64,000 nt of DNA from an uncultured Thermoleophilia bacterium (GTDB taxonomy: Bacteria > Actinomycetota > Thermoleophilia > UBA2241), in assembly GCA_963702475.1 (NCBI GenBank), contig CAVPCT010000009.1:96001-160000 (forward strand), written 5' to 3'. A program made the translations under genes and the position numbers. Position 1 is the stretch's first letter, and every line of letters starts with the position of its first letter. The notes below the pieces were generated by a model that searched no databases, was not told the origin of the DNA, and saw only the letters and a program-made list of their open reading frames with translations. This document shows, in pieces, positions 9,998-61,618 of the stretch.

Positions 9998-12610
9998 TCA
10001 GACCTGCTGCGCGTCCGGCAGGCGCTCCACCTGGATCAGCGCGGTGTTGCACGCCTGCCCCGGCGAGGTGGGCGTGATGAAGCGCTTCGGCGTCAGGATG
10101 TTGATGCAGCCGGCGAGGTCGGGCGAATGCCCCGGCTCGCCGGCCGGCTCGTAGTCGGCGCACGACTCGTAGCAGTGCACCGTGCCGGGGCGCACGCGCT
10201 CGGTCACGTAGGCGGCCAGGAGCACCTCGCCGCGGTCGTTGAAGGCGCGCACGAGGTCGCCGTGGGCGACGCCGCGCGCCTCCGCGTCCTCGCTGTTCAG
10301 GCGGATGATCCAGTAGTGCCGCCCGTCGTCCTTGAGCAGGCGGTGTTCTTCGATGTCCACAGCCCATGCGTCCTTGCCGTCGCCGTGCGTGTGGAAGCTG
10401 AAGCGCGGGTGGGGCGAGAGCAGCTGCAGCGGGTACCTCGCCGTGAGGTCGGCCGTCCGGTGGCCCTCCCAGCTCTCGATGTACTGGGGGCCCATGGCCG
10501 GGCGCTCGTCATCGACCACCTCGCCGCTCTCGTAGAACCGTGTGAGGCTCGAGCTCACGAACTCGATCTTGCCGGTGGTGGTCTGCAGGCCCTTGCGGCC
10601 CACGGTGTCCCACGGCGGCGGGCCCCAGTCCGGGGTGTCGCGCTCGCGGTCCTCGGCGAACCAGCGCAATGCCGGCGTCGAGCGGTGCGGCTCCGGCACC
10701 GGGACCACGTAGTAGCCCTTCTCATAGAACTCGTCCCAGGAGATGCGCTCGGGCAGGTCGCTGGCCTCGAAGATGCGCTTCGCCCAGTCCAGCTCCGTCA
10801 GCCCGCCCTCGGTGTAGATGTTGCCGATGCCCAGCTTGCCGGCCAGGGCCGCGAAGATCTCGTAGTCGGAGCGGGACTCGGCCAGCGGCTCGATGCACTT
10901 CTTCTGCAGGACGATGATCCTGTGGTTGACCTGCTCGAACTTGTGCGTGCCGTAGCCCGAGGCGTGCGCCCAGTCGCCGATGTCCCAGCGCTCGAAGTTG
11001 GTGCAGGCCGGCAGCACGATGTCGGCGAAGCGGGTCTCGCCCTCCATCCAGATGGCCTGGCTGACCACCGTCGGGATCATGCCCTCGCGGTAGGCGGTCA
11101 CGTAGCGGTTGGTCTCGGTCATGGTGCCGATGAACGAGCCCCCGTAGCGGTAGTACATCTGCACGTGGGGATAGCCGGGGGCGGGGTACTCGTACTTCTG
11201 GAACTGCGACTCGATGGACGAGCCGCAGAAGCCCTTGCCGTGCCACTGCAGCTTCTCGTGGCGCATGGCCTCGGGGATGCGCAGGCGGGGCACCGTCTGG
11301 CCCTCGGTGGAGTGCTGCGGGTTGCTGAGGAAGCCGCCGTTGGGCCACATGCGGCTGGCGAGCTGCTTGCCGGCGGCCGTCCCCGCTACGTCCCCGGAGA
11401 TGCCGCCCTCGGCGTAGCCGGGGAAGAAGAAGTCGGTGTCGAACGGCACGCCGCTCGTGGTGGACCAGAGGTTCTGGCCGGGCTTGCCGAGGCCCTGCAT
11501 GGCGACCAGGGCGATCATGGCGCGCGCCCACTCGTTGCCGCTGGAGGCGCGGCAGGCGCCGCCCCAGCCGCCCTGGCCGCCGGCGGCGAGCATGGTCTTC
11601 TTGCACGCCCAGGCGCGCGCCAGCGCGCGGATCTGGCGCGCCGGCACGCCGCACTCGTCCGCGGCCCAGGCCGCGGTCTTCGGCGTGCCGTCGCTCTCGC
11701 CCAGCACGTAGGCCTTCCACTCGCCGAAGCCGTGCGTGTGCGTGTGCACGTACTCGACGTCGTAGGTGCCCTCCATGAGCCACGTGTGGGCGATGCCCAG
11801 GGCCAGCGCCACGTCGGTACCCAGCCGCGGCGCCAGCCACGTGTCGCCGAGCAGCGCCGCGGTGTGGTTGTGGTACGGGTCGATGAAGACCATCTGCACG
11901 CCGAGCTGCTTGAGCCAGTCACGCCGCGAGGTGCTCTCGAACGAGGCGTACACACCGCCGGTGGTCTCGGGGTCGGACGACCAGAACACCATCAGCTCGG
12001 TGTGCCTGAGGGCGTCCTCGAGCATGTCGTACTGCTCGGGGATGCCGAGGCGGTGGCTGAAGCCCCACATGTGGACGCCGCCCCATTGCCAACCTTCCCA
12101 GCTGTCGGGGTTGTGCTCGCCGTAGGTGTAGCCGACGAGGTTCATGAAGCGGTTGTAGGCGCTGAAGCGGTAGCCCACGTTGCCCCAGAGATGGTGGGAG
12201 CCCGGCGTGGTGAGCATGCCGGCCGGGCCGACCTCGCGCTTGATGCGGACGATCTCGGCGGCCACGATGTCCAGGGCCTCGTCCCAGCTGATGGGCTCGT
12301 AGCCGGACTCGCCGCGGGTGTGGATGTTGCGGGCGCCGTCCGGGTCCCAGTCGACGCGCTTGAGCGGCGTGAGGATGCGCGACGGCGAGTAGATCGTCGA
12401 GCGATGGGCGACCGTCCAGGGCGAGAGCGTCGTCTTGCGCGGCGGCGAGAACGAGCGGCCGCGCGCCTGGATGGTCCAGGACGGCGCGTCGCTCTCGTCG
12501 AGCTGCAGCGGGATGATGCGTCGGATACGGCCGTCGGCCACGTCCACGTGCACGGGTCCGCCGGTGGTCAGATTGGTGAGGCGCCGGACCTCGGAGGTCG
12601 TTGCGGTCAT
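9998..12610 (-). CDS. Pyrogallol transhydroxylase large subunit-like Mo-bisPGD enzyme (most AthL-like copy)
   Basis: TPGSHHLWGNVGYR, NPDSWEGW, GGWGGACRAS, FPGYAEGGISGD, LPACTNFERWD, SPHPRFSFHT; no Tat signal, no N-terminal FeS motif. Confidence 0.9.
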   Translation of the reverse strand: MTATTSEVRRLTNLTTGGPVHVDVADGRIRRIIPLQLDESDAPSWTIQARGRSFSPPRKTTLSPWTVAHRSTIYSPSRILTPLKRVDWDPDGARNIHTRGESGYEPISWDEALDIVAAEIVRIKREVGPAGMLTTPGSHHLWGNVGYRFSAYNRFMNLVGYTYGEHNPDSWEGWQWGGVHMWGFSHRLGIPEQYDMLEDALRHTELMVFWSSDPETTGGVYASFESTSRRDWLKQLGVQMVFIDPYHNHTAALLGDTWLAPRLGTDVALALGIAHTWLMEGTYDVEYVHTHTHGFGEWKAYVLGESDGTPKTAAWAADECGVPARQIRALARAWACKKTMLAAGGQGGWGGACRASSGNEWARAMIALVAMQGLGKPGQNLWSTTSGVPFDTDFFFPGYAEGGISGDVAGTAAGKQLASRMWPNGGFLSNPQHSTEGQTVPRLRIPEAMRHEKLQWHGKGFCGSSIESQFQKYEYPAPGYPHVQMYYRYGGSFIGTMTETNRYVTAYREGMIPTVVSQAIWMEGETRFADIVLPACTNFERWDIGDWAHASGYGTHKFEQVNHRIIVLQKKCIEPLAESRSDYEIFAALAGKLGIGNIYTEGGLTELDWAKRIFEASDLPERISWDEFYEKGYYVVPVPEPHRSTPALRWFAEDRERDTPDWGPPPWDTVGRKGLQTTTGKIEFVSSSLTRFYESGEVVDDERPAMGPQYIESWEGHRTADLTARYPLQLLSPHPRFSFHTHGDGKDAWAVDIEEHRLLKDDGRHYWIIRLNSEDAEARGVAHGDLVRAFNDRGEVLLAAYVTERVRPGTVHCYESCADYEPAGEPGHSPDLAGCINILTPKRFITPTSPGQACNTALIQVERLPDAQQV

Positions 12611-13046: not shown

Positions 13047-15251
13047 TCAGGCTTTGCCGTATGTGGGCACCGTCCCGTAGTTCTCCGTGGTGAACACCTC
13101 GTCCTGCAGCTCCTCGGGCCTGGCCTTGTAGACCTTGCAGATGAGGCAGGTCATGTCCGGCGACCCGTACATGGGGTCGAGGTGGTCGTTGCTGGTGCAC
13201 ACGTTGGGGTTCGAGATGAACACGCCGTGGTACCCCTCTGCCGAGGCCTCGGGATAGAACCAGTTGGCGGTGCACATGATCATGCCCTTCTTGATCCCCG
13301 GGAACTCGTGCAGCTTCTGGCGGATGCGCCCGCGCTTGGTCTCGATCCAGATGATGTCGCCGTCTTCCACGTCGTACTTCTTCGCGGTCTCGGGGTGCAT
13401 CTGGCACTGCGGGAACTCCATGTAGCTGCGCAGCCAGGGGATGTTGCGGTACTGGCCCAGGAAGTAGAAGGGCTGGCGGAAGCCGGTGCTCATGACGACC
13501 GGGTACTCCTCGAAGAGCTCCGGCGTGCTCACCGGGCTCTCGCCCGGCTCGCGGAACACGGGCAGCGGGTCGTACCCGAGCGACTCCAGGTGCTTGGACC
13601 AGAACTCGAACTTCTTCGTGGGCGTCGGGAACCCGCCGCCCTCGTGCCAGTAGTCGGTCCTGTACTTGTAGTAGACCTGGTCGGGGCCCATGCACGCGCT
13701 GACGAGGTTCTGGCTGAAGTCCTTCCACTTCATGGTGCCGTCCATGCCCTTGCGCACCTGGTAGTCGAGCAGGTCGTCCGTGTTGTCGAACCACTTGTCG
13801 GTGACGCGCCGGCCGACCTCGTTGAAGATCCAGGCGTCCGACTTCGCCTCACCGGGCGGCTCGATGACCTTGTTGTGCGCCTCGATCATGAAACGCGGGT
13901 GCATGTCGTACACGTCGTCGAGCTCGAGCCAGTGGGCGGCCGGCAACACGATGTCGGCCGCCTCGGCCATCGGCCCCATGAAGAGGTCGGTGTGGCTCAT
14001 GAACTCGACCTTCTCGATGGCCGCCACGACCTCTTTGGTGTTGGCCATGTGCACGATCTGCTGGCCGCCGACGCTGAACCACACCCTGATCGGCGCCTCC
14101 CCGCGGTTGAGCGCCTTCACCATGGTGTCGGGGTTGCAGGTGCGGGCGGCGCCCATCTTGTACGTGTCGCCGCCGATGATGTGGCTCTTCATCTCGTCGG
14201 TGATCGGCAGCTCGAGGAAGAAGTCCTCGATGAGGCCGGTCTCGGGCAGCACCCACGTGATCATGCTGCCCGGCCTTTCGATGTTGCCGGTCAGGCCCAT
14301 GAGGCAGGTGATGGCGCGCAGCGTGTGGCCGCAGTTGGCCTGACGCTCCAGCGAGCTGCCCACCTGGATGCACCCCGGCGTGTCGACGGCCCATAGGCTC
14401 GGCGGCCTGCGTCACGTGTTCCCTGGGGATCCAGCAGATATCGGAGACCTTCTCCGGGCGTGAAGTCCCTGGCCCGCTCCCTGAGCTCGTCGAACCCATA
14501 GGTCCAGTTGTCGCACGAACTCCTTGTCCCAGAGCTCGTTCTCGATGATGTCGTTGATCATGCCCAGAGCCAGGGCGCAGTCGGTGCCCACCCGCGGCTG
14601 GATCCAGAGGGTGGCGCGCGAGGCGTAGGCGGACGCGCGCGGGTCGATGATGATCAGATTCTTGGCGTAGTCCAGCGAGTTCATGAACCAGTAGGCCATC
14701 TCGGAGTCGGCGCTGCTGATCTCCAGCTGCTTTGCCCACGAGATCTGGGTCTTGGGGAACTCGCCGCCCCAGCCGTGGTAATCGCAGTACAGGCGGCCGT
14801 AGCCCGTGACCAGGCCGTAGAGGCCGAGGCGTGGGCTGTGACACACGTAGCCGGGGGTGATGGCGTTGCCGGTGCCCAGCGAGCGCGCCATCTTCATGGT
14901 GTAGCGGTTGTAGCCGCGGCCGGTGCCCTGCGAGACGGCGATGGAGTGCGGGCCGGGGTCGGCGATCGCCGCCTTCATCTTGTCGGCGATGGTGTCGAGC
15001 GCCTCATCCCAGGTGATGCGCTCCCACTTGCCGCTGCCCTTGGGCCCGACGCGCTTCATCGGGTGCTTGATGCGGTACGGGTTGTCGATGTGCTGGATGC
15101 TCGAGAGACCCTTGGAGCACATGGTGCCCCGGGTGGTCGAGTCCGGGTTGCCCTGGATGTGGACGATGACGTCGTCTTCCAGAGTGACGATCACCCCACA
15201 GCCGCCGTGGCAGCTCTTGCACGTCGTCAGGACTTGCCTACGTTCACCCAT
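13047..15251 (-). CDS. Mo/W-bisPGD oxidoreductase, acetylene hydratase/catechol dehydroxylase-like; frameshifts near 14380-14520
   Basis: N-terminal CKSCHGGC..CSKG [4Fe-4S] motif, RIKHPMKR, ITWDEALD, TPGYVCH (candidate Cys ligand), ADIVLPAAHWLE, MHPETA. Confidence 0.85.
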
Positions 15252-15281
15252 TGTCTCTCTCCTGACAGGTCGTGGCCGCCA

Positions 15282-16261
15282 TCACGCGACCTTCGGGAGG
15301 ACGGACCGGTAGATGCCGACCTTGAGCACCGAGTACTTCAGCGCGAACGCGCCGACGGTGTGGCCGATGATGGCCACGATGAGCAGGCCCTCGGTGTGGC
15401 TGCCCATGGCCAGCGTCGCGAACGAGATGACCAGCGGCGTGATGATGCCCAGGAGCACGAGCAGGATCCAGAAGACCCAGCTTCTGGCTGCCCTTGATGA
15501 GGTCGTTGGCCGCCACCTCGGCGGCGGAATGCCGCCGGTAGGCGCGGAGCAGGTACCCGGCGATGAGCAGGGCGTTGGCGATGAGGAAGATGCGGCTCCA
15601 CGTCTCGAGCGTGCCGATGACGATTCGTCGGCGCCGCCCGTGGCGAGGTTGACGCCCATGGCCAGCGCCAGGCCGTCGGCGAAGCCCATCAGCACGAACA
15701 CGAGAGGCAGCAGGCCGGTGTTCCAGAACTGCAGGCCCTTGCAGTAGCTCATGGCGAACCCGCAGTAGGCGCCGGTGAGCACCATGAAGACGCCGGCGAT
15801 GATGCCGGTGATCCACGAGAGCACCGACAGCGTGGACACGGCCGAGGCTCCCAGGTCGCCCCAGAGCAGGAAGCCCCAGAACACGAGCTGGAGGAAGCCG
15901 AACCCACGAAGATGGTCGTGAACACCACGCCGCGCGCCATCCACGACGTCTTCCACGCCTTGCTGAACGGCGGGAAGGCGCGCCAGAAGCGGAGCGGCTT
16001 GCCGAGGTAGAAGAGGTGCAGGGGGAACTTGAACAGGACGATCATGAGCCAGCCGGCGACGGTCGCCCAGAACGCCCAGGCGGTGATCTCCCAGGCGCCG
16101 GCGATGAGACCGACCAGGTAGGTGCCCATGCCGAGCGCCGAGAAGACCTCGGCCAGCCACACCATGAGGCCCTTGCCGGCGATCCACTCGGTCTGCCGCA
16201 TGGGCTTGACCATCCACTCGTGGGTGGTGATCCACTGGCGGCGGGTCTGGACCTTGGTCAT
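15282..16261 (-). CDS. NrfD/PsrC/DmsC-like membrane anchor, frameshifted
   Basis: Multiple hydrophobic helices; HLFYLGKPLRFWRA..SWMARG, FWNTGLLP; lies between FeS subunit and Mo enzyme. Confidence 0.75.
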
Positions 16262-17049
16262 GACGTCACCTCCGCCTCGTCCGGGTCGCGGCCGTAGATG
16301 CGCCGGTAGGCGTCACGGTCGACGGTGCTGAGGTGCTGGAGGTGGCTGCCGGTCTGCGCCTCGCGCGGCGCCTTGTTCGACGGCGCGCCGCCCAGCTTGT
16401 AGTCGACGTACCACACCGACGGGTCGGTGGCGTACTCAGTGCGCAGCTGGAATCCCCCACGGTCGCGGATGAGCCGCGACACGTTGCTCTCGGGGTCGTC
16501 GAGGTCGCCGAACGTGAGGGCGCGCGCCTGGCAGGTGTTGACGCACGCCGGGGTGGCGTCCCTGTCGATGCCGGGCAAGAGCCCCCTGGACATGCCGTCG
16601 TCGATGCGCTCCGCGCAGAAGTTGCACTTCTCCGTGGTGCCGCGCTGGTGCGGGTAGAGCTTCTCTCCCGCCTTCTCGAACCTGGTCTTCTCGAAGCCGG
16701 GAAAGTACCCCGGGTCCTTGTCCTTGGAGACGAAGGTGCGGTTCTGGTACGGGCAGGCGATGACGCAGTACCGACAGCCGATGCACTTGTCGTGGTCGAT
16801 GACGACGATGCCGTCCTCGCGCTGGTGTGACGCCTCGGTGGGGCAGGCGTGCACGCACGGGGCGTCGGAGCACTGGTTGCAGCGCACCGGGTACGTGCTG
16901 ACGTCGACGGCGCCCTGCTCGTCCACCTCATAGGCGATGAGTTTCACCCAGGTGATGTGCAGCGGCAGGAAGTGCTCGATCCTGCACGCGGCCACGCAGG
17001 CGTGACAGCGCATGCACTTCGCCAGGTTGATGACCATTCCCCATCTCAT
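16258..17049 (-). CDS. 4Fe-4S dicluster protein (DmsB/NrfC-like)
   Basis: CMRCHACVAAC, CNQCSDAPCVHACP, CIGCRYCVIACP, KCNFC..PACVNTC, FGDLDDP. Confidence 0.9.
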   Translation of the reverse strand: MRWGMVINLAKCMRCHACVAACRIEHFLPLHITWVKLIAYEVDEQGAVDVSTYPVRCNQCSDAPCVHACPTEASHQREDGIVVIDHDKCIGCRYCVIACPYQNRTFVSKDKDPGYFPGFEKTRFEKAGEKLYPHQRGTTEKCNFCAERIDDGMSRGLLPGIDRDATPACVNTCQARALTFGDLDDPESNVSRLIRDRGGFQLRTEYATDPSVWYVDYKLGGAPSNKAPREAQTGSHLQHLSTVDRDAYRRIYGRDPDEAEVTS

Positions 17050-17078: not shown

Positions 17079-17888
17079 CTACCGCGTCAGGGGGACGTCG
17101 CCAAGGCTGACGTCCTTGTCGGTCTGGACTTCGCAGGTGGCCGGCGCGAACCCGTCCGCGGCGATGGTGACCGCGTACGTGCCTTCCTCGAGCCCGTGGA
17201 GCCAGAAGTCGCCGAACGCGTCGGTCTGCGTCGAGCACGACGCGCCGTCGGCCGCCGTGGCTGTGACGGTGGCGCCGACCACGACCTCCTTTTCGGCCGG
17301 GTCGTACACCGTGCCGGCGATGAACCTCTTCGGGACGTTGAGGTAGTACACCCGCGGCTTGGTGCCGGCCTCGGGCTTCTTGACCTGCGCCTGCGCGATG
17401 AGGTCGGCGAACTCGTCCTGGTCGCCGAACTTGAGCGCGCCGGTGGGGCAGGAGTCCACACAGCGCGGGGCCTCCCAGCCGCCGTCCAGCAGGTGGGCGC
17501 AGCCGGTGCACTTCTGCGCCAGGTTGAGGTCTTCGTTGAAGGAGATAGCGCGGTACGGGCAGGCATCGACGCAACTCCTGCAGCCGGTGCACCTGTCGGT
17601 GTCGATGACGACCAGGCCGTCGTCGCGCTTGTACATCGCGCCCTCGACCTTGCACGAGGCCATGCAGGGCGCCTCGTCGCAGTGGTTGCAGTGGTTGGCG
17701 ACGTAGTGCATGCGCACCTGCGGCACCTGGCCGCAGATGTGCTCGTCCACGCGCATCCAGAACTGGCCGTAGTCGGGTTGCGGTTTGGCGATGGGGGCCC
17801 AGTCGTTGCCCACGTGCTCGTCCTTGCAGGCGAACTGGCAGCCGAAGCAGCCGTTGCAGATGCCGACGTCCACGATGAACGCTTTCAT
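17079..17888 (-). CDS. Transhydroxylase small subunit-like FeS protein (16 cluster Cys) with C-terminal beta-sandwich
   Basis: CNGCFGCQFACKDEH, CNHC..PCMASC, CTGCRSCVDACP, CTGC..CVDSCP; TDAFGDFW..L..GTY tail. Confidence 0.88.
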   Translation of the reverse strand: MKAFIVDVGICNGCFGCQFACKDEHVGNDWAPIAKPQPDYGQFWMRVDEHICGQVPQVRMHYVANHCNHCDEAPCMASCKVEGAMYKRDDGLVVIDTDRCTGCRSCVDACPYRAISFNEDLNLAQKCTGCAHLLDGGWEAPRCVDSCPTGALKFGDQDEFADLIAQAQVKKPEAGTKPRVYYLNVPKRFIAGTVYDPAEKEVVVGATVTATAADGASCSTQTDAFGDFWLHGLEEGTYAVTIAADGFAPATCEVQTDKDVSLGDVPLTR

Positions 17889-20518
17889 CAGTCGTTACCT
17901 CCGTCGACCACCCAGCCGTTGAAGCGCAGACCGGCGCCGGGGTCGTACTCGCGGGCGAAGGCCTCGGGGTGCTCGGTGCGCCACTGCTCCCACTCCTCGG
18001 GCCTGATCTTCTGCACGTCCACGAGGTAGCCGCTGGTGGCCTGGCCGCAGGCGTTCTTGGACGTCAGGCCGTGCGGCGCGATGGTGTTGATTGCGCCGCC
18101 GCGGTCGACCTTGCCGGGGATGATGGGGTCGTGCCGGGCGCCGTGGTCGATGTACGTCACGCCCGGCATCATGCGCTCCCACACGCAGGCGCCGGCGAGC
18201 ACGATGCCGCGCTCGTTGAAGATCTTGACGATCTCGCCGTGCCTGATACCGCGCTCCTCGGCGTCCTTTGGGTTCAGCCACACGGGCTCGTAGTTGTAGT
18301 TGTCGGGACCCAGCACCTTGCCGGTCGGGGTCTCGCGCGCCCACGTACAGTCGTCGCCCTGGGCGTGCGTGCGCCAGCGCGGGTGGTTGCTCATGAGGAT
18401 GAGCGGGAACATGTCGGCGCGCTCGCTGGAGAGCCGCTCGTCGTGCGTGATGCCCTTCTCGATCCACTTGGGGATCCCGGGGCGCTCCTTGTCGTCGGGG
18501 AAGTGCGTGGCAAGGCGATCCGAGTAGAACTCCAGCAGGCCCGACGGGGTCTTGAGCGGGTTGTTCTCAGGGTCCTCGTAGAACCTGCGCAGGCCGGGCG
18601 GGTCCTGCTCCCAGTCCTTCGCAGTGGGGTAGACGATGTACTGCTTCTCCTTGAACTCCTCCCAGGTCATGTACTCGGGACCGTACATGCACTCGAAGAC
18701 CTCACGCTGCAGGTCCTCGTTGCTCTTGCCAAGGGTGAGCTTCTCCTTGTAGCCGAGCTTCTCGGCCACCGCGAGCACGATCTCATAGTCGCTCATGGAC
18801 TCGCCCACCGGCTCGATGGCCTTCTCCGTCAGCATGCAGGTCTGGTACGGGGGACCCTGGCGGACGTTGGTGAGGCAGTCGTCGACTTCCATGGTGGTGT
18901 TGGCCGGCAGGATGATGTCGGCGTAGAGGCAGTCGTTCTCGAGCCACGGGTGCTGCGCGACCATGAACTCGATGCTCGGGTCGCGGTGCGCCTCGATGGT
19001 CCAGTTGCCGTGGTTCCAGCAGGTGATGCGGCACGGCGTGTCGGTCCAGATCATGTGCAGGCGGCTGCCGCCCTCCTCTTCTGGCTCCGGGAACCGGTAG
19101 TCGATGAACTGGTCCTCGGTCTCGGCGTTCTGCGCGCCGGTGCCGGCGAAGTGGATGGTCTCCGGGTTGAGGATGGCCTCCTGGATGAGCGTCTTGGGGA
19201 CGTTCTGCGTGCCCCAGGCGTCCACGCTGCTGCGGACCGGCGTGCGCAGGTGCTCGCTGAGGGTGGGGTTGAAGTAGCGGAAGTTGTCGAGCGCCTCCGC
19301 GCGCGGCATGCCGAAGTAGGAGAACTGCCACTGGTGCACGCCGGGGCCGCCGAGGCCCTGCATGCCGAGCAGGATGCACTCCAGGCGGCCGGGTTCGTGG
19401 GAGTACGGGCCGCGGACCATGGAGCCGCCGAAGTAGTGCAGGATCGAGGTGCACTGCTTGGCGAACTCGCGGGCCAGCGCCTTGATGGTCCACTCGGGGA
19501 CGGCGGTCTTCTTCGCGGCCCACTCGGGCGTCTTGGGCACGCCGTCTTCTTCACCGAGCACGTAGGCCGCGACCTTCTCCATGCCGACGGCGTGGCTCGC
19601 GACGTACTCCTTGTCCCAGGTGTCTTCCTTGAGCCACACGTAGATGATGGCCAGCTGCAGGGCGGCGTCGGTGTTGGGCAGGATCGGGATCCACTTGTCG
19701 GCGTGCACCGCGGCGCCGAAGTTGAGCTCGGGGCAGATGTAGACCTGCTTGATGCCGACCTTGGTGAAGAAGTAGGAGATGTTGGTGGCGTTCTGGCCGG
19801 TGAAGCCCCAGGGCGTGGTCTCGTCGTCACAGCCCCACTTGAGGACGAGGTCGCAGTTCTCCACCACGTCCTTGAGGACGTTCAGCTGGGGCGCCATCAT
19901 GCCCTGGAAGCCGTGGCCCCAGACGTGCTTGGAACCCCAGTACCAGCCCTCCCAGCTGTCGGGCTGGCGGACCTGCAGGGTGAAGCCGCCCATCTCGTTC
20001 ATCAGGCGGCCGTTGTGGCCGTGCGGCGTGTGGATGGTCTTGCTCTCGCCGTGGCCGTCGGCCTGGAGGAGGATCGCGTTGAGCCCGTAGGTCTTCTGGA
20101 TGCGCCGGATCTCCGCGGCGATGATGTCGGTGGCCTCGTCCCACGAGATGCGCGCGTACTTGCTCACGCCGCGGTTCTGCGGGTTGCGCTCGCCGTTCGG
20201 GTCCCAGTCCACGCGCTTCAGCGGGTACTTGATGCGGTTGGGGGAGTAGGTGCGCTTCTTGTACGCCGTCATGTAGGGGGCCGGACGGGACCTGGATCCC
20301 GGCTCCAGCGTGTGGCCGTTGCGTTCGAGCTTCCACGGGCGGAAGGTCTCGGCGTCGTACTTCCAGTCGTACTGGAACGGCCGGATACGCACGATCTTGC
20401 CGTCCTTGACGTCGACCATGACCTCGCCGGTGCCGCCGAGGAGGCCGCCCTGCGACAAGGCCCGGAGGACGGTCTTGTCGGGGGTCACATCCACGTTCTT
20501 GCGCGAGTCCTCACTCAT
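17888..20518 (-). CDS. Transhydroxylase-family Mo-bisPGD large subunit, 'DGHG' subtype
   Basis: RIKYPLKRVDWDP, QADGHGESK, QPDSWEGWYWG, RGPYSHEP, ADIILP, SNHPRWRTH. Confidence 0.88.
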   Translation of the reverse strand: MSEDSRKNVDVTPDKTVLRALSQGGLLGGTGEVMVDVKDGKIVRIRPFQYDWKYDAETFRPWKLERNGHTLEPGSRSRPAPYMTAYKKRTYSPNRIKYPLKRVDWDPNGERNPQNRGVSKYARISWDEATDIIAAEIRRIQKTYGLNAILLQADGHGESKTIHTPHGHNGRLMNEMGGFTLQVRQPDSWEGWYWGSKHVWGHGFQGMMAPQLNVLKDVVENCDLVLKWGCDDETTPWGFTGQNATNISYFFTKVGIKQVYICPELNFGAAVHADKWIPILPNTDAALQLAIIYVWLKEDTWDKEYVASHAVGMEKVAAYVLGEEDGVPKTPEWAAKKTAVPEWTIKALAREFAKQCTSILHYFGGSMVRGPYSHEPGRLECILLGMQGLGGPGVHQWQFSYFGMPRAEALDNFRYFNPTLSEHLRTPVRSSVDAWGTQNVPKTLIQEAILNPETIHFAGTGAQNAETEDQFIDYRFPEPEEEGGSRLHMIWTDTPCRITCWNHGNWTIEAHRDPSIEFMVAQHPWLENDCLYADIILPANTTMEVDDCLTNVRQGPPYQTCMLTEKAIEPVGESMSDYEIVLAVAEKLGYKEKLTLGKSNEDLQREVFECMYGPEYMTWEEFKEKQYIVYPTAKDWEQDPPGLRRFYEDPENNPLKTPSGLLEFYSDRLATHFPDDKERPGIPKWIEKGITHDERLSSERADMFPLILMSNHPRWRTHAQGDDCTWARETPTGKVLGPDNYNYEPVWLNPKDAEERGIRHGEIVKIFNERGIVLAGACVWERMMPGVTYIDHGARHDPIIPGKVDRGGAINTIAPHGLTSKNACGQATSGYLVDVQKIRPEEWEQWRTEHPEAFAREYDPGAGLRFNGWVVDGGND

Positions 20519-20564
20519 CTCAATCGCTGTCCTTTCGCCAGTGTCGATGCCCCCCTGAACGGGC

Positions 20565-21423
20565 TCAGACGGTTGACTCGGATGCAGGCCGGGACTGGTT
20601 CCAGCCGAGGTAGGCGGAGAGGGCGGCGGCCGTCTCCCGCACCGCCGCGGTGCAGAGCTCGCGCTCCTCGGGGCCGAAGCGACCCGAGGGCACGGCGACG
20701 GAGAGGGCCGCGACGACGGTGCCGAGCTGGTCGCGGACGGGGCAGCCGACGGAGCACACACTTTCGAAGAGGCCTTCGATGTCGTAGGCGACGTCGTCCC
20801 GCACGATGTCGTCGAGCTGCCTGCGCCAGAGCCTCGGGATCTGTGACGGTGTACGGCGTGTGTTTGCGCCGCGGCCGCGCGAGGATCTCGGCGCGCCTGT
20901 CGGGCGGCGCGAAGGCGGTGAAGATCTTGCCGTGCACGGCGGCCAGGTCGCCGATGATGCGGCCGGGCGCGATCTGCCGCTGGAACGGGCGCGCGGAGTC
21001 GATGATGCCCGCGCACACGGGCACGCCGTCGACCGGGATCGCGAGGGTGACCGACTCGCCGGTGGTCTCGACGAGCTCCTCGAGGAACGGCCGCGCGAGA
21101 TCGACGAAGTCGGAGTTGTCCTCGGCGACGTAGCTCAGGGCGATGGCGGCAGGCCCGAGGTGGTAGGTGTTCGTGGTGGCGTCGCGCACGAGGAAGTCGG
21201 CGCCTTCGAGCGTGCGCACCATGCGATAGGCGGTCATGCGCAGCAGGCCGGTGCGCGCCGCGATGTCGTCGATGGACCACTCGCGGTGCTCGGCGTCGAA
21301 CAGCGAGAGGATGGAGAGGCCGCGCGCGAGCGCGCGCACGGTGAGCGGGTCGTGCTCCGGCGTACGTTGGCTCCGCCGCCCGGACGCTCCTGGTCCCGCA
21401 ACCTGCGTCGTCGCGCCCGTCAT
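20565..21423 (-). CDS. IclR family regulator, frameshift near 20810-20825
   Basis: VRALARGLSILSLF..RMTAYRMVRTL; C-terminus CSVGCPVRDQ..PSGRFGPE in 20565..20804; paralog of 653..1501. Confidence 0.88.
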
Positions 21424-21612: not shown

Positions 21613-24147
21613 ATGACTGAGCAGGTGTTCACCAATCTGACGAACAACGGTCCCGTCACGGTGTACGTCAAGGACGGCGTGGTGACGCGGGTGCGCCCGC
21701 TGGTCGCCGACGAGTCCGAGTTCAGGCCCTGGGTGATCGAGGCGGACGGCAAGGAGTACTCGCCGCCCAGGAAGTTCAACGTGGCGCCGATGGTGCTCGC
21801 CGAGCGCCGGCGCCTCTACTCCGACGACCGCATCAAGTACCCGATGAAGCGCGTCGACTTCGATCCCGACGGCGAGCGCAACCCGCAGAACCGCGGCAGG
21901 TCGGCCTACGAGCGCATCTCCTGGGACGAGGCGCTCGACCTCGTCTCCGGCGAGATCGCGCGCGTGAAGAAGAAGTACGGCAGCTCCGCGATCAGCGGCA
22001 TGACGTCGTCTCACCACAACTGGGGCATCGTCGGCTACAAGATGGGCCCCTTCATGCGCTTCATGAACTGCCTCGAGGCCACCCCCGTGTTCGACAACCC
22101 GGACAGCTGGGAGGGGTGGCACTGGGGCGCCACGCACACCTACGGGTTCTACTGGCGCCTGGGCATGCCCGAGCCGTTCGACAACCTCCAGGACGTGATG
22201 AAGAACTCCGAGATGATCGTCTTCTGGTCGAACGACCCGGACACCACGCGCGGGACGTACTCGGGGCAGGAGTCGGCCATCTGGCGCACGTGGCTCCACG
22301 AGAAGGGCGTCCAGGCCGTCTTCATCGACCCCTTCCACAACTACACCAACGCCATCTTCTCCGACGCCAAGTGGATCGCGCCGCGCATGGGCACCGACAC
22401 CGCGCTGGCCATGGCGATCGCCTACGTGTGGATCACCGAGGACACCTACGACAAGGAGTACGTCGCCGAGCGCACCATCGGCTTCGACGAGTTCAGGCCC
22501 TACGTGCTCGGCGAGACCGACGGCGTGCCCAAGACGCCCGAGTGGGCGGCGGAGGAGTCGGGCGTCGACGCGCGCGTCATCCGGACGCTCGCGCGCGAGT
22601 GGGCCGAGCAAGCGCACCGCGCTCGCGGCCGGCGCGCGCGGCGGCGAGGGGAGCGCCTGCCGCACCGCCTACGGCACAGAGTGGGCCCGCATGATGGTGC
22701 TCCTCCAGGCCATGCAGGGTCTGGGCAAGCCCGGCATCACCATCGGGGGCGTCTCCATGGGCGCGCCGGCCGAGTTCGACACCTGGTTCCCCGCCTACGC
22801 CGAACCGCGCGGCCGCATGTCGCACTCGACGGTGGCCGCCAAGTACATCCCGCAGAACTCCACGAAGCAGCGGCTCTACAGGCTCACCGTGCCCGACGCC
22901 ATCCTCGACGGGCACGTCGAGTGGTGGGGCGCCGGCTTCTGCGGCCAGTCGCTCGAGCAGCAGTTCGAGCACTTCGTGTACCCCGCCGAGGGCTGCTCCG
23001 AGATCAAGCTCTGGTACCGCTACGGCGGCTCGTTCATGGGCACCATGAGCGACACCAACAAGTGGGTGCGCATGTACCAGAGCCCCAAGCTCGAGTTCGT
23101 CGTGAACCAGGACATCTGGTTCAACAGTGAGACGACGATGGCCGACGTGATCCTGCCGGCCTGCACCAACTTCGAGCGCGACGACCTCGGCGAGTTCGCC
23201 GCCTGCGGCGGCTACACGACGAACTCGCACTCCGGCAACAACTACCGTGTCATCGTCCGCGAGCAGAAGTGCATCGAGCCCCTCTGGGAGTCGCGCTCGG
23301 ACTACCAGATCCTCGCGGCGACTCGCCGAGCGCCTCGGCATGTACGACGAGTTCACCGACGGCGGCAAGACCGAGATCGACTGGGCCAAGGCGTTCTACG
23401 ACGCCTCCGACCTGGCCAGGACGCTGGACTGGGAGACCTTCAACGAGAAGGGCTACCACATCATCAGCGCCCCCGAGCGGTACGAGCCCAAGCCGTGTCT
23501 GCGCTGGTTCGCCGAGGGCCGCGCCTGCGACACGCCCGACACCGGCAACCCCAAGCGCAACATCCCGGAGAAGGCGCACGAGCTCGGCACCTACAGCGGC
23601 AAGATCGAGTTCTCCTCCGAGAGTCTCAAGGCGCACTTCCCCGACGACCAGGAGCGCCCGGTCTCGCCGAGGTACATCGAGAGCTGGGAGGGACACCACA
23701 CCACCGAGCTCTTCGAGAAGTACCCGCTGCAGCTCATGTCGCCGCACCCGCGCTTCTCGTTCCACTGCCACTACGACAAGCACACCGACTGGCTCGACGA
23801 CATCCCCGTCCACCGCATCAAGAAGGACGGGTACGCGTGGTGGCCGGCAAGGCTTCACCCCGCGGACGCCGACGCGAGGGGCATCCGCAACGGCGACCTC
23901 GTGCGGCTGTACAACGACCGCGGGTCGGTGCTCTGCGCCGCGGTGGTCACCGAGCGGGTCCGGCCCGGGCATCATCCACAGCTACGCCTCGTCGGCCAAG
24001 TACGACCCGCTCGAGCCGGGCAAGTCCGACTCCATCGACAAGGGCGGCTGCGTGAACGTGCTCACGCCGTCGCGCATGCTGAGCAAGCACGCGCCCGGCA
24101 TGACGCCCAACTCGTGCCTCATCGACGTCGAGAAGTGGGAGGGCTGA
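21613..24147 (+). CDS. Transhydroxylase-family Mo-bisPGD large subunit, 'SSHH/GGEG' subtype; frameshifts near 22610, 23320, 23965
   Basis: TSSHHNWG, NPDSWEGWHWG, LPACTNFER, SPHPRFSFH, GCVNVLTPSR spread over consecutive frames; ATG after GGAGG. Confidence 0.88.
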
Positions 24148-24151
24148 TCCG

Positions 24152-24986
24152 ATGACCCGTCTCGGTCTGCTCATCGATGTCACCAGGTGCAGCGGCTGCT
24201 ACAACTGCTTCCTCGCCTGCCGTGACGAGCACTACGGCAACGACTACCCGGGCTACTCCGCGCCGCAGCCCCTGTACGACCACTTCTGGCTGAAGATCAA
24301 CGAGGTCGAGGGCGGCCGCTACCCGCGCCCCCGGCTCAACTACATCGCCGTCCCGTGCCAGCAGTGCCAGGACGCGCCGTGCATGGCTGCCGCCAAGGAC
24401 GGCGCCGTGTACCGTCGCGCCGACGGCATCGTGATGATCGACCCCGTGAAGGCCAAGGGGCAGGACCAGATCGTCGCCTCCTGCCCGTACCGCGTCATCT
24501 CCTGGAACGAGGAGCTGGAGCTGCCGCAGAAGTGCGGCTTCTGCGCGCACCGTCTGGACGAGGGCGAGAAGGTGCCCCGCTGCGTCGAGGCCTGCCCGAC
24601 CGGCGCCATGGCCTTCGGCGACCTCGACGACCCGCAGTCGGAGATCTCGCTGCGGCTCAAGGAGGTCTCGCCGAGGTGTTCCACCCCGAGTACGAGACCG
24701 GAGCCGAACGTGCTGCTACGCCGGCCTGCCGGGGCGCATGGTGGCCGGCGAGGTCGTGCTCGAAGGCGCCGACGCGTGCGCCGCCGGCGTCAAGGTCACC
24801 CTCAAGGGTGACGGTGAGACGTGCGAGACGCGATCGGGCGTGTTCGGCGACTTCGCCTTCGAGAAGCTGCCGAGGGGCAGGACATACCGCGTCACCGTGG
24901 CGCACGAGGGCTACGCCACGCTGTCGTGCGAGGTGCGGACCCACACCGACGTCGACCTCGGCCAGGTGGTGCTGGCGAAGGCGTGA
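24152..24986 (+). CDS. BthL-like FeS small subunit (12 cluster Cys), frameshifted near 24670-24720
   Basis: CSGCYNCFLACRDEH, CQQC..PCMAAA, KAKGQDQIVASCP, CGFC..CVEACP; FGDFAFE..Y.V tail in 24738..24986. Confidence 0.85.
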
Positions 24987-26870: not shown

Positions 26871-26908
26871 CGTCTCGCCCTCCTCGGAACGCCCCGATGA
26901 TAGCAGAC

Positions 26909-50224: not shown

Positions 50225-50240
50225 GCCAGGGTCACTCGCG

Positions 50241-54733: not shown

Positions 54734-57238
54734 ATGGCGGAACAGAGCTTCGTGAACTGCACCAGCGGCGGCGCGATCCGCGTGGACGTGGCCGACGGCA
54801 GGATCGTCCGCGTGCGGCCGCTGGTGTTCGACGAGACGGACGCCGCGTCGTGGACGCTGGAGGTCGAGGGACACGAGTACACGCCGCCGCGTAAGTCCTG
54901 CGTGGCGGCGTTCTCGCTCACCGAGCGCGCGCGCGTCTACTCCGAGGAGCGGATCCAGTACCCGATGAAGCGGGTCGACTTCGACCCGGACGGGGAGCGT
55001 AATCCGCAGAACCGCGGCAAGTCCGGGTACGAGCGCATCAGCTGGGACGAGGCGCTCGATCTCGTGGCCGGCGAGATGAAGCGCATCCGCGAGAAGTATG
55101 GCCCGGAGGCCATCACCTCGCGGGCCTCGTCCCACCACAACTGGGGCAACCTGGGCTACCGCTCGGCGGCCTGGGCCCGCTTCTTCAGCCTCATCGGCTT
55201 CACCGACATCCTCGACAACCCGGACAGCTGGGAAGGCTGGCACTGGGGCGCCACGCACGCCTGGGGCTTCTTCTGGCGCCTCGGCAACCCGGAGCATTAC
55301 GACCTGCTCGAGGACGCGCTGCGCAACACCGAGCTGATCATCCAGTGGGGCAATGACCCCGACACCACGCACGGCATCTACGGCGGCAACGACTCGGCCG
55401 TGTGGCGGCTGTGGCTGCGGGAGCGGGGCATCAGGACCATCGTCATCGACCCCTTCTTCAACTACACGGGCGCGCACGTGGGCGACAAGTGGATCGCCTA
55501 CCGGCCGGGCACGACGGCGGCGCTCGCACTGGCCATCGCCCACGTGTGGATCGAGGAGGACACCTACGATCACGAGTACGTGGCCGCGCGGACGCTCGGG
55601 TTCGAGGACTATCGCGCCTACGTGCTCGGCGAGGAGGACGGCGTCGCCAAGACGCCGGCCTGGGCCGCCGAGCTCACCGGCGTACCGGCGCGCACGATCG
55701 TCGCGCTGGCGCGCGAGTGGGCGTCCAAGCGCACGTGCCTGGCGGGCGGAACCAAGGGTGGCGAAGGCGGGGCCTGCCGGCAGGCCTTCGCCACCGAGAG
55801 CGCCCGCATGCTCGTCCTGCTGCAGGCCATGCAGGGCCTCGGCAAGCCCGGCGTGATGATCTGGGGCACGGCCAACGGGCCGCCGTACAACGCTACGCTC
55901 GAGTTCCCCGGCTACGCCTCCGGCGGCTTCAACCTCATCGCCGAGAAGCCGGCCGTGAACCCCGTTCGACAGCGCCTGTACCGCCTCACGGTGCCGGAGG
56001 CCATCCTGAGCGCGCCCATCAGCTGGATGGGCGAGGGCTTCTGCGGCAACTCCATCGAGCAGCAGTTCACGAAGTTCACGTACCCGATGCCCGGTCACTC
56101 CGAGGTCAGGATGTTCTACCGCTACGGCGGAGCCTTCCTGGCCACGATGACGGACACGAACCGCTGGGTGCGCATGTACCAGAGCCCCAATCTCGAGTTC
56201 GTCGTGAACCAGGACTGCTGGTGGTGCACCGAGACGAAGTTCGCCGACGTGGTGCTGCCGGCGTGCACAAACCTGGAGCGCGAGGACATCGCCGAGTGGG
56301 CGAGCTCCGGCGGCTACTCGCTGCACGCCTCGGGCAGCGCCAGCCACCGCGTGATCGTCTACCAGCAGAAGTGCATCGAGCCGGTCGGCGAGTCGAAGCC
56401 CGACTACGACATCTTCGTCGAGCTGGCCCGGCGCCTGGGCGTGGAGCAGGAGTACACCGAGGGCAACACGTTCGAGGGCTGGATCCGCAAGATGTTCGAC
56501 AAGTCGGACCTGCCCCAGTACGTCTCGTACGAGGACTTCAAGGCGAAAGGCTACTTCGTCGTCCCGCAGATCGAGGACTACAAGCCGACGCCGGCCCTGC
56601 GCTGGTTCGCCGAGGGCCGGCCCTGCGACACGCCGGACACGAGCAACCCGAACCGGGGCACGGACAAGGAGCATCTGCTCGCGACCGTCAGCGGCAAGCT
56701 CGAGTTCGTCTCCCAGAGCCTGCTGGCGCACACGCCGGACGACGACGAGCGCTCGCCGCTGCCGCGCTGGCACGAGAGCTGGGAGGGGCACACGTCGGAG
56801 CTGGCGCAGGCGTACCCGCTGCAACTGATCTCGCCGCACCCGCGCTTCTCCTTCCACACGCAGCACGACACGCGCGTGCCGTGGCTCTCGGAGATCCCCG
56901 GGCACCGCAGGTGGATCGACGGCTACCCGTACCAGGTGGTGCGCGTGCATCCGGACGACGCCGCTGCGCGCGGTATCCGCGACGGCGACGTCGTGAAGCT
57001 CTACAACGGCCGGGCATCGGTGCTGCTCGCGGCGCAGATCACGGAGCGTGTGCGCCCGGGTGTGGTGCACTCGTATGAAGGCTCCTCGAGGTACGACCCG
57101 CTGGAACCGGGCAAGGCCGGGAGCACCGACCGCGGCGGCTGCGTGAACCTGCTCACGCCGTCGCGGATGCTCTCGAAGAACGTGCCCGGCATGGCGCCCA
57201 ACTCGTGCCTCGTCGAGCTCGCGAAGTGGGAGGGGTGA
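54734..57238 (+). CDS. Transhydroxylase-family Mo-bisPGD large subunit, 'SSHH/GGEG' subtype
   Basis: ASSHHNWGNLGYR, NPDSWEGWHWG, GGEGGACR, FPGYASGG, SPHPRFSFH; paralog of 21613..24147. Confidence 0.9.
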   Translation: MAEQSFVNCTSGGAIRVDVADGRIVRVRPLVFDETDAASWTLEVEGHEYTPPRKSCVAAFSLTERARVYSEERIQYPMKRVDFDPDGERNPQNRGKSGYERISWDEALDLVAGEMKRIREKYGPEAITSRASSHHNWGNLGYRSAAWARFFSLIGFTDILDNPDSWEGWHWGATHAWGFFWRLGNPEHYDLLEDALRNTELIIQWGNDPDTTHGIYGGNDSAVWRLWLRERGIRTIVIDPFFNYTGAHVGDKWIAYRPGTTAALALAIAHVWIEEDTYDHEYVAARTLGFEDYRAYVLGEEDGVAKTPAWAAELTGVPARTIVALAREWASKRTCLAGGTKGGEGGACRQAFATESARMLVLLQAMQGLGKPGVMIWGTANGPPYNATLEFPGYASGGFNLIAEKPAVNPVRQRLYRLTVPEAILSAPISWMGEGFCGNSIEQQFTKFTYPMPGHSEVRMFYRYGGAFLATMTDTNRWVRMYQSPNLEFVVNQDCWWCTETKFADVVLPACTNLEREDIAEWASSGGYSLHASGSASHRVIVYQQKCIEPVGESKPDYDIFVELARRLGVEQEYTEGNTFEGWIRKMFDKSDLPQYVSYEDFKAKGYFVVPQIEDYKPTPALRWFAEGRPCDTPDTSNPNRGTDKEHLLATVSGKLEFVSQSLLAHTPDDDERSPLPRWHESWEGHTSELAQAYPLQLISPHPRFSFHTQHDTRVPWLSEIPGHRRWIDGYPYQVVRVHPDDAAARGIRDGDVVKLYNGRASVLLAAQITERVRPGVVHSYEGSSRYDPLEPGKAGSTDRGGCVNLLTPSRMLSKNVPGMAPNSCLVELAKWEG

Positions 57239-57240
57239 CG

Positions 57241-58086
57241 ATGCCGCGCTACGGGATGGTCATGGACGTCGCCCGCTGCAACGGGTGCTACAACTGCTTC
57301 CTGGCCTGCAAGGACGAGCACTGCGGGCAGGCCCATCCGGGCTACGCCGCGGCGCAGCCGATGACGGGCCAGTCCTGGATCCGCGTGACGGAGCACGAGC
57401 GCGGCCAGTTCCCCAAGGTCAAGGTCGACTACACGGCGGTGCCGTGCCTGCACTGCGACGAGGCGGCGTGCGTGGCGGCCGCCTCCGAAGGCGCCGTGTA
57501 CCGCCGCGACGACGGCATCGTGCTCATCGATCCGGAGAAGGCGGCGGGGCAGAGGGACGTCGTGCAGAGCTGCCCGCACCGCCTGATCTTCTGGAACGAG
57601 GCGGAGCAGGTGGCGCAGAAGTGCACCCTGTGCGCCCACCTGCTGGACAAGGGCTACAAGGAGCCCCGGTGCGTGGAGGTGTGTCCCACCGGGGCCCTCG
57701 TCTTCGGCGACCTCGACGACTCCGACAGCGAGGTCGCGCGGGCGTTCGCCGAGGCCGAGGTCCTGCACCCGGAATACCGCCTCGGCGACAAGGTCCGCTT
57801 CGTCGGCCTGCCTGCCGAGTTCGTCGCCGGCTGCGTCGTGTTCGGCGACACCGACGCCTGCGGGGTCGGCGCCACGGTCACCCTGCAGGGTGACGACGGC
57901 GTGGCGGTCTCGGCTGTGGCCGACAGCTACGGCGACTTCGCGTTCGACGGCCTGCCGCGGACCGCGCGCTTCACGGTGTCTGTGTCGGCTCCGGGCTACG
58001 CCCCGTCAACCTGCGAGGTGACGACCCGAACGTCCATCAACCTCGGCGACATCGTGCTCGGCACGCTCACGGAAGGAGCGGTGTGA
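57241..58086 (+). CDS. BthL-like FeS small subunit (12 cluster Cys)
   Basis: CNGCYNCFLACKDEH, CLHC..ACVAAA, KAAGQRDVVQSCP, CTLC..CVEVCP; YGDFAF tail. Confidence 0.88.
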   Translation: MPRYGMVMDVARCNGCYNCFLACKDEHCGQAHPGYAAAQPMTGQSWIRVTEHERGQFPKVKVDYTAVPCLHCDEAACVAAASEGAVYRRDDGIVLIDPEKAAGQRDVVQSCPHRLIFWNEAEQVAQKCTLCAHLLDKGYKEPRCVEVCPTGALVFGDLDDSDSEVARAFAEAEVLHPEYRLGDKVRFVGLPAEFVAGCVVFGDTDACGVGATVTLQGDDGVAVSAVADSYGDFAFDGLPRTARFTVSVSAPGYAPSTCEVTTRTSINLGDIVLGTLTEGAV

Positions 58087-60787: not shown

Positions 60788-61618
60788 GTGGGCAAGGTCT
60801 TCGTCATCGACGTCGGCAGGTGCAACGGCTGTCACTCGTGCCAGGTCGTCTGCAAGGACGAGCACGTGGCCAACGACTGGACGCCGTACGCCAAGCCGCA
60901 GCCCGAGGTCGGTCAGTTCTGGATCGAGCTCACCGAGCGGGTGCGGGGCACGGTGCCCAAGGTCAAGGTGGCCTACCGCCCGCACCTCTGCATGCACTGC
61001 GACAACGCCCCGTGCATGACCTCATGCACGGTGCCCGGCGCCCTGTACAAGCGCGCCGACGGGCTGGTCATCATCGACCCGGTCAAGTGCACCGGGTGCA
61101 AGAACTGCGTGGACGCGTGCCCGTACGGCACCATCTTCTTCAACGACAACCTCAACATCGCCCAGAAGTGCACCGGCTGCGCCCATCTGCTGGACGACGG
61201 CTGGGCCGAGCCGCGCTGCGCCGACGCCTGCCCGACGCTGGCCATCAAGCTGCTGGAGGAGGACGAGGCGAAGGCACAGGGGCTGCTCGACGGCGCCGAG
61301 GTCTGGAAGCCGGAGCGCGCGGAGGAGCTCAGGCCGCGCGTGTACTACCGCAACCTGCCGAAGAAGTTCATCGCCGGCACGCTCTACGACCCGGCGGAGG
61401 AGGAGGTCGTGATCGGCGCGACGGCGACGCTGACGGCGGCGGACGGTGGGGGAGAGGCGCTGACCGCCGAGACCGACGCCTACGGCGATTTCTGGTTCGA
61501 GGGCCTCGAGGACGGCGTGTACGACCTGGAGCTGAAGCACGACGGCCAGGCCGTGAGCTTCGCCGGCCTGGACGCCGCCGCGGCCGACATCAACCTGGGG
61601 GACATCCCGCTGGTGTGA
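60788..61618 (+). CDS. Transhydroxylase small subunit-like FeS protein (16 cluster Cys)
   Basis: CNGCHSCQVVC, CMHC..PCMTSC, CTGCKNCVDACP, CTGC..CADACP; TDAYGDFWF tail; paralog of 17079..17888. Confidence 0.88.
   Translation: MGKVFVIDVGRCNGCHSCQVVCKDEHVANDWTPYAKPQPEVGQFWIELTERVRGTVPKVKVAYRPHLCMHCDNAPCMTSCTVPGALYKRADGLVIIDPVKCTGCKNCVDACPYGTIFFNDNLNIAQKCTGCAHLLDDGWAEPRCADACPTLAIKLLEEDEAKAQGLLDGAEVWKPERAEELRPRVYYRNLPKKFIAGTLYDPAEEEVVIGATATLTAADGGGEALTAETDAYGDFWFEGLEDGVYDLELKHDGQAVSFAGLDAAAADINLGDIPLV

Follow-up and report, generated by a model that had tools for sequence, protein, structure and literature searches.

We examined a 64,000-nucleotide stretch of an uncultured Thermoleophilia genome (contig CAVPCT010000009.1, positions 96,001 to 160,000; hereafter, the window; G+C content 68.8%), focusing on the gene for small subunit A, one of four small-subunit genes that stand next to genes for large, molybdenum (Mo)-binding subunits (pairs A to D). 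Small subunit A is the beta subunit, responsible for electron transfer, of a Mo enzyme that is cytoplasmic, consists of two subunits and belongs to the pyrogallol-transhydroxylase (AthL/BthL) family. Its fold is that of BthL, C-terminal beta-barrel included, yet it retains all 16 cysteines of the ancestral four-cluster scaffold. Our phylogenies indicate that this difference in the number of iron-sulfur (Fe-S) clusters was passed down within two old paralogous alpha-beta lineages. The explanation that we consider the best, and to which we would give about half of our belief, is that an inherited cluster difference is combined, wherever the fourth cluster (FS4) has been kept, with a working FS4 wire and net two-electron chemistry.

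Several observations place small subunit A in this family. Its Fer4_11 core (Pfam, E = 4e-27) is followed by a C-terminal, beta-barrel-like CarboxypepD_reg domain (E = 5e-16), and this combination of ferredoxin core and barrel is also the build of BthL. The closest solved relative is indeed BthL (chain 4v4c_B, E = 9.8e-49, residues 4-266), with PsrB (2vpw_B) second. Similarly, an AlphaFold model based on a 27-sequence alignment (mean pLDDT 97.2) had 4v4c_B as its top structural match (TM 0.89), then PsrB (TM 0.80, normalised to PsrB), with which it has the ferredoxin core fold in common. Homology to BthL spans the full length, barrel included; the restriction to three cluster sites that marks BthL-like subunits is absent. 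The start of the gene overlaps the stop of the large (alpha) gene directly upstream, which is AthL-like and encodes no Fe-S domain; in such pairs, the two genes overlap in this way or lie a few nucleotides apart, and the alpha subunit has PF21423 and lacks PF04879. A Pfam scan of the AthL-like large subunits C, D and F detected no Fe4S4 domain and found AhtL-like_1st instead, and large subunit D, a paralogue of large subunit A, has the same Pfam domains (AhtL-like_1st, Molybdopterin and Molydop_binding). Alpha A holds no cysteine in its first ~100 residues, and neither alpha A nor alpha D has a twin-arginine (RR) motif. The two-subunit build, in which alpha begins with an AthL-like domain and carries no Fe-S domain, is thus shared with AthL/BthL. 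In contrast, PsrB/DmsB-type proteins have an alpha partner that carries an FS0 cluster as well as a twin-arginine signal and lack the C-terminal barrel that small subunit A adds, and no membrane anchor appears to be conserved beside BthL-like pairs. No NCBIfam model reached its cut-off for small subunit A (DmsB, 119.5 against 214 bits; ArrB, 121 against 450; TtrB, 117.6 against 416).

The cysteines of small subunit A comprise 16 ligands in four groups (11/14/17/21, 67/70/75/79, 100/103/106/110 and 127/130/143/147) and three others. Sixteen cysteines in four groups are the pattern of DmsB/PsrB-type proteins (PsrB/NrfC 2vpw_B, ArrB, DmsB and FdnH), and all of them align with cysteines of PsrB, including Cys79, Cys100, Cys103 and Cys106, the set which we take, from the NarH and DmsB literature, to be the FS4 ligands. 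Small subunit D has the same 16. Small subunits B and C have 12 ligands, as group II is short of its last cysteine and group III of its first three, and read ...PCMAAA / KAKGQDQIVASCP (B) and ...ACVAAA / KAAGQRDVVQSCP (C). BthL, which presumably carries three clusters, has the same four gaps and so lacks exactly the cysteines that small subunits A and D retain. The preliminary description of this DNA had counted 16 cluster cysteines in the partners of one large-subunit subtype (DGHG) and 12 in those of another (SSHH), likening them to four-cluster proteins and to BthL, respectively, and these counts and alignments bear it out on each point. By homology, the four extra cysteines would bind FS4, which of the four clusters is the most distant from the Mo site. 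For subunits of the NarH/NxrB type, two reports place FS1 against the active-site subunit and FS4 at the far end of the chain beside the haem subunit (PMC8301774, PMC8387239), the neighbourhood of the haem being that described for NxrB (PMC8387239). Within the window, subtype and cluster count match perfectly. Since the four pairs come from two paralogue lineages, such a match would arise by chance about once in six, and the window alone proves little.

The subtypes are read from the columns of AthL residues 142-145 (numbering from the alignment with 4v4c_A), which are DGHG in large subunits A and D and SSHH in B and C. To survey more pairs, the four small subunits were aligned and used to scan genome contigs. 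At least 600 stretches matched, at least 588 of them encoding relatives, and we kept the 80 loci that resembled small subunit A most (numbered with the prefix L below). Profile searches of all open reading frames (ORFs) then gave 112 small-subunit-like and 124 large-subunit-like proteins. Among the former, 103 reached a score of 230 bits or more, six PsrB-like rows, with 16 cysteines each, served as an outgroup, and three fragments were dropped. Being chosen by similarity to small subunit A, the sample leans towards partners of enzymes with the motif D-x-H-G (second position G in 35, M in 27, Q in 7 and L in 1 of 70 full-length rows); SSHH pairs entered only if they lay within 10 kb.

The FS4 positions were occupied in an almost all-or-none manner. 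Of the 103 BthL-like small subunits, 50 had all four cysteines (CCCC), 19 had three (CCxC) and 34 had none, with no other intermediates. We could type 77 of them, from the 80 other genomes and the window, by a full-length large-subunit gene directly upstream; the other 26 were excluded as lying at contig ends or being partial. All 15 partners of SSHH or GSHH enzymes lacked FS4 (CCCC 0, CCxC 0), while the 62 partners of D-x-H-G enzymes were divided into CCCC (38), CCxC (11) and FS4-less (13), the last including cases from Gordonibacter faecis, Raoultibacter, Oscillospiraceae and Lachnospiraceae. The link between subtype and FS4 is therefore a rule in one direction only, from SSHH/GSHH to no FS4: the preliminary claim that cluster count tracks subtype stands for the window and for the SSHH/GSHH side, and gives way on the D-x-H-G side, with its FS4-less and three-cysteine partners. 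A profile search of 1.84 billion representative proteins gave 535 matches at E <= 1e-30. From the best 150 of these, 143 were shorter than 600 amino acids and 114 covered the core. Those 114 representatives (50% identity) had no FS4 cysteine in 80 cases, CCCC in 24, CCxC in 4 and an odd pattern in 6, so that 108 follow the all-or-none pattern.

The CCxC rows form a single clade of the small-subunit tree. In its 19 small subunits the middle cysteine of group III is replaced by N, S, A or K, and they are mostly paired with DQHG enzymes (loci L008, L015, L016, L038, L040-L042, L044, L050, L052, L053, L055, L056, L058, L067, L069, L070 and L077). NarH, we assume, is without a cysteine at the same position. 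Judging by this likeness to NarH/NxrB/EbdB-type subunits, the CCxC variant, which is absent from the window, probably carries FS4 as a 3Fe-4S cluster, the form described for NarH (PMC8301774).

Phylogenetic trees revealed how unequally the two traits have evolved. In a small-subunit tree (109 rows, FS4 columns removed), the type of the large subunit changes once and FS4 presence six times, at least three of these forced by well-supported branches. A large-subunit tree (FastTree, 90 rows) likewise has one change of type, with the 20 rows that carry SHH forming a clade of support 100, and seven changes of FS4 presence; here, well-supported branches force at least six changes of the FS4-less label. 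In a joint tree of 214 rows, FS4 presence needs 10 changes, and the clade of D-x-H-G partners holds 62 CCCC, 21 CCxC, 34 FS4-less and 3 odd rows. Nine FS4-positive rows fall outside this clade, as its sisters, at the base of the family or (one) with the outgroup, and none among the SHH partners. Because the outgroup has 16 cysteines and these rows are sister or basal, we infer that four clusters are the ancestral state, that the lineage of transhydroxylase proper (SSHH/GSHH) lost FS4 and that the D-x-H-G lineage lost it repeatedly. The covariation across homologues that had been predicted is thus seen on the SSHH/GSHH side and dissolves elsewhere, as FS4 changes six to ten times against one change of subtype. 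Given a single independent contrast, the match between subtype and FS4 is mostly ancestry.

Ancestry might even be the whole story, a reading that we regard as possible though not probable. FS4 beside D-x-H-G enzymes would then be an undecayed ancestral state, silent on net redox chemistry, and the match within the window would reflect two old paralogue lineages. The single change of subtype, the FS4-less partners of 13 D-x-H-G enzymes and the failure to find a conserved partner gene (see below) all agree with this, but pure inheritance does not readily explain why the four cysteines (three in the clade of 19) are kept across Actinomycetota, Chloroflexota, Thermodesulfobacteriota and Bacillota, or why they are all-or-none in each of the 103 locus rows and nearly all representatives. 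Moreover, the other 12 ligand cysteines are intact in 85 of 86 FS4-positive rows versus 70 of 93 FS4-less rows (Fisher p = 1e-6, kinship ignored), which points to selection on the whole wire.

Erosion beyond FS4 was found in one FS4-less group, which is also without three FS2 ligands. It was observed at L042 (5652-6650), at L058 (1519-2445) and in representatives such as P0179 and P0207. In these subunits, group I has D, T, A or V instead of its fourth cysteine and group IV has W and D instead of its first two, so that at most two sites are intact and the wire has a gap. Among the partners of D-x-H-G enzymes, those without FS4 also look mosaic, both at L043 (9881-10813 and 16119-17177) and at twelve other loci: their FS4 segment is 58-84% identical to segments of SSHH partners, and the flanks match those of their FS4-positive kin. 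The segment of L043 has 81% DNA identity to the co-resident SSHH-partner gene, versus 52% and 62% in the flanks. Such segments stem either from patch gene conversion or from convergence. As a general source of the FS4-less segment, gene conversion was set aside, as it is supported in L043 only and a codon-level test was ambiguous elsewhere.

We next compared the active sites. Large subunits A to D, of either type, all carry the Mo-ligand motif NPDSWEGW (Asp174, Ser175) together with His144. We take His144, Asp174, Ser175 (the Mo ligand), Tyr404 and Tyr560 to be the residues that matter in AthL. Equivalents of the first three occur in all 20 SHH and all 70 DxH rows of the large-subunit alignment (90 rows), and the window enzymes share them with AthL, pair C being a close relative of AthL/BthL. 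The tyrosines behave differently. Tyr404 has an equivalent in 20/20 SHH rows (C and F included), while a tyrosine occupies this column in 9/70 DxH rows, within a badly aligned stretch, and the surrounding motif FPGY is missing from the D-x-H-G large subunits. Tyr560 is likewise matched in 20/20 SHH rows (again including C and F) versus 0/70 DxH rows (69 gaps, one Phe). Large subunits A and D thus differ from AthL in having DGHG rather than SSHH and in lacking both tyrosine equivalents; they stand much farther from AthL than C does, and alpha A is 40% identical to alpha C. Without these tyrosines, it is plausible that the D-x-H-G enzymes catalyse a reaction different from that of transhydroxylase. 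A possible link between a tyrosine at the Tyr404 column and FS4 loss among D-x-H-G enzymes was considered and rejected, as the column is misaligned and no association was seen. Indeed, the FS4-less D-x-H-G alpha subunits have no transhydroxylase-like change in the active site, so that FS4 is dispensable for at least some members of this clade.

The shared core of the active site also fits a more modest role for FS4, namely reductive activation or redox poising of the Mo centre, or a structural one, with the D-x-H-G enzymes possibly remaining redox-neutral hydroxyl transferases. His144, Asp174 and Ser175 equivalents in 90/90 large subunits agree with this, as does the transhydroxylase lineage, in which three clusters are retained, as the sequence pattern reflects, with presumably no net electron flow. 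Nonetheless, we find this doubtful, since both transhydroxylase tyrosines are missing from the D-x-H-G enzymes, and a role in activation alone leaves unexplained why further cluster erosion occurred in FS4-less but not in FS4-positive lineages.

In the explanation that we prefer, the four clusters would form, wherever FS4 is kept, a continuous wire that links the Mo centre with a soluble partner encoded elsewhere. The D-x-H-G enzyme would share a pathway with the transhydroxylase encoded nearby and act on a polyphenol with a net transfer of two electrons, by water-dependent hydroxylation or by reductive dehydroxylation. The all-or-none FS4 pattern, the intact state of the other cysteines and the missing tyrosines fit such a wire and a different reaction, and they do not prove them; the step from four clusters to net redox chemistry is plausible. 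The longer wire to an external partner, and the net oxidation or reduction that the preliminary description drew from it, thus find some backing in the constraint on FS4 and in the missing tyrosines, and none in a conserved partner gene.

A number of observations weigh against this explanation. Subtype offers one independent contrast on both trees, with no statistical power for an association; the survey is a biased sample, being the best 80 of at least 588 relatives; and 13 of the 62 D-x-H-G enzymes are paired with an FS4-less partner. All-against-all clustering of the ORFs within 7 kb of the pairs yielded no conserved redox-partner gene, and no neighbouring gene family was found beside more than 18 of the 103 pairs. 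An Fe-S protein gene comes next after only 2 of 69 FS4-positive small-subunit genes, those of the window and L002, which are close relatives. Alpha A belongs to a large, uncharacterised D-x-H-G clade: of at least 5643 homologues at E <= 1e-30, the best 120 bear generic names and no functional one. Finally, transhydroxylase itself keeps three clusters despite its redox-neutral reaction, so that conserved clusters are no proof of electron transfer during turnover. Cluster number alone is no predictor of chemistry.

A Pfam scan of 80 of 83 downstream ORFs also detected no conserved redox partner; the remaining three all lie in the window, where two were scanned separately and one is a shadow frame over a scanned Fe-S gene. 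For pair A only, FS4 could conceivably dock on the membrane module encoded downstream (a PsrB-like and an NrfD-like protein) and couple the enzyme to the quinone pool, and the gene order alpha-A, beta-A, PsrB-like, NrfD-like is common to the window and L002. This is very unlikely: the NrfD-like gene, two genes after beta A, stands beside its own PsrB-like and acetylene-hydratase-like genes, the alpha subunit encoded by the latter has its own Fe-S motif and is the expected partner of both proteins, the arrangement recurs at just those two related loci, and pair D has no such neighbour.

Other neighbours concern the pathway. Both enzyme types occur within 10 kb of each other at 14 of 63 loci, in three phyla, and a thiolase gene directly follows 9 of the 15 typed SSHH pairs. 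Genes for acyl-CoA dehydrogenase, electron-transfer flavoprotein (Etf), CoA-transferase and short-chain dehydrogenase lie near the pairs in L021 and L025, and the window too has acyl-CoA dehydrogenase, Etf and short-chain dehydrogenase genes. These neighbours fit a pyrogallol/phloroglucinol fermentation route. The operon of pairs C and D is flanked at 48167-54684 by genes for a CCG-domain Fe-S protein, Etf alpha and beta, a LysR regulator and an acyl-CoA dehydrogenase; the pairs of L021 and L025 similarly have genes for acyl-CoA dehydrogenase, thiolase and LysR beside them, and L021 has Etf genes as well. A more specific proposal is that D-x-H-G enzymes with an FS4 partner would be net-redox polyphenol hydroxylases or dehydroxylases acting next to the transhydroxylase encoded with them; they might, for instance, make or recycle its cosubstrate 1,2,3,5-tetrahydroxybenzene from pyrogallol or phloroglucinol, FS4 handing the two electrons to a soluble carrier such as the Etf encoded nearby or a ferredoxin. 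We rate it as quite improbable in this exact form; it would explain why both types are co-located in Thermoleophilia, Desulfobacterales and Clostridia.

Relatives of transhydroxylase that catalyse a net oxidation do exist, namely resorcinol hydroxylase RhLS and 3,5-dihydroxybenzoate hydroxylase DbhLS. One report places RhL and PgtL in a single Ser-coordinated family (PMC10100899). Mo enzymes with Fe-S partner subunits that act on polyphenols are also described for the catechol dehydroxylases of the gut bacteria Eggerthella and Gordonibacter, the Gordonibacter type having two subunits and, it is said, fewer Fe-S clusters (PMC11574389, PMC7028382). On the published tree these enzymes are acetylene-hydratase-like and form a clade separate from transhydroxylase (PMC7028382), and the catalytic subunit of Gordonibacter Hcdh is given as 770 amino acids long (PMC11585353). 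We considered the Gordonibacter dehydroxylases as a counter-example, that is, net reductases with few clusters, and dropped them, as they are acetylene-hydratase-like, 770 amino acids long and not AthL-like. Their relative in the window is the disrupted acetylene-hydratase-like gene rather than any of pairs A to D. No paper relating enzyme subtype to cluster number was found in the literature searched.

Table 1. Subunit genes of the AthL/BthL family and associated features in the window.
Feature	Position	Strand	Basis or remarks
Small (beta) subunit A, BthL-like, 269 aa	17079..17888	-	Pfam, cysteine count, BthL match, model
FS4 ligand codons of small subunit A (Cys79, Cys100, Cys103, Cys106)	17571..17654	-	PsrB alignment
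Large (alpha) subunit A, AthL-like, DGHG, 876 aa	17888..20518	-	No N-terminal Fe-S domain, no twin-arginine signal
Large subunit B, SSHH	21613..24155	+	Three frame changes: ~22607-22611, 23317-23322, 23965-23969
Small subunit B, 12 ligand cysteines	24152..24983	+	Frame change ~24712-24717
Large subunit C, SSHH, close to pyrogallol transhydroxylase AthL	54734..57238	+	882 bits to 4v4c_A, residues 7-834
Small subunit C, 281 aa, 12 ligand cysteines, without FS4 ligands	57241..58086	+	BthL 205 bits, E 1.3e-59
Large subunit D, AthL-like, DGHG, 900 aa	58083..60785	+	AthL 4v4c_A 419 bits
Small subunit D, 276 aa, 16 ligand cysteines	60788..61618	+	FS4 codons within 61025-61108
Orphan AthL-like large subunit F, GSHH	9998..12610	-	No adjoining small-subunit gene
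PsrB/DsrO-like four-cluster Fe-S protein, no barrel domain	16258..17049	-	30 nt downstream of small subunit A
NrfD-like membrane subunit	15282..16235	-	PF03916, E 1.8e-13
Acetylene-hydratase-like Mo/W subunit, N-terminal Fe-S motif	13047..15251	-	Disrupted

The remaining genes of the window (Table 1) differ in integrity. Pairs A, C and D and gene F are intact, and the stop of small gene C overlaps the start of large gene D, making pairs C and D one operon. Pair B is broken three times in the large gene and once in the small gene, as located by tblastn with the intact L002 orthologues; the break in the small gene shifts its C-terminal barrel domain into another frame, its first ORF being 24152-24811 on the forward strand. 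Similarly, the acetylene-hydratase-like gene has an out-of-frame stretch of ~35 amino acids that ends in TGA at 14412-14414, and its L002 orthologue is intact (305 bits to 2e7z_A). The interrupted genes may be pseudogenes or assembly errors. An IclR gene at 20515-21423 (reverse strand) appears truncated. The homologue P0001, which has 93% identity to large subunit A, is listed with a length of 1016 amino acids and an IclR_C domain, and this gene call looks as if it ran on into the upstream regulator.

Gene F retains equivalents of Trp354, Tyr404 and Tyr560, and L002 is arranged alike, also with no adjoining small gene. The PsrB/DsrO-like protein scored 179.7 bits against the DsrO model, under its cut-off of 200. 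In make-up, the set at 13047-17049 on the reverse strand (Fe-S protein, NrfD-like protein and Mo/W subunit) recalls Eggerthella-type catechol dehydroxylases, and, its acetylene-hydratase-like subunit having no twin-arginine signal, it would face the cytoplasm. Further along, a nucleotidyltransferase gene lies beside an ORF with a weak HEPN match (25152-26900), and an addiction-module antitoxin domain is encoded at the end of the window (63544-63999); by their domains, these are likely toxin-antitoxin genes.

Overall, our analysis separates two lineages that genome papers cover with the single label "pyrogallol hydroxytransferase": in two such papers, Chloroflexi genes are annotated in this way with no distinction of subtype (PMC3971608, PMC4959651). 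The lineage of transhydroxylase proper has a shortened Fe-S wire that is sometimes eroded further. The D-x-H-G lineage is much larger, with its at least 5643 homologues, is unstudied and mostly has the full four-cluster wire. Cluster count is thus a useful marker of lineage and an unreliable predictor of chemistry. Should polyphenols indeed undergo net redox chemistry at the D-x-H-G enzymes, the way in which anaerobic polyphenol degradation is annotated for soils, sediments and guts would have to be revised, and the source of the transhydroxylase cosubstrate would become testable.

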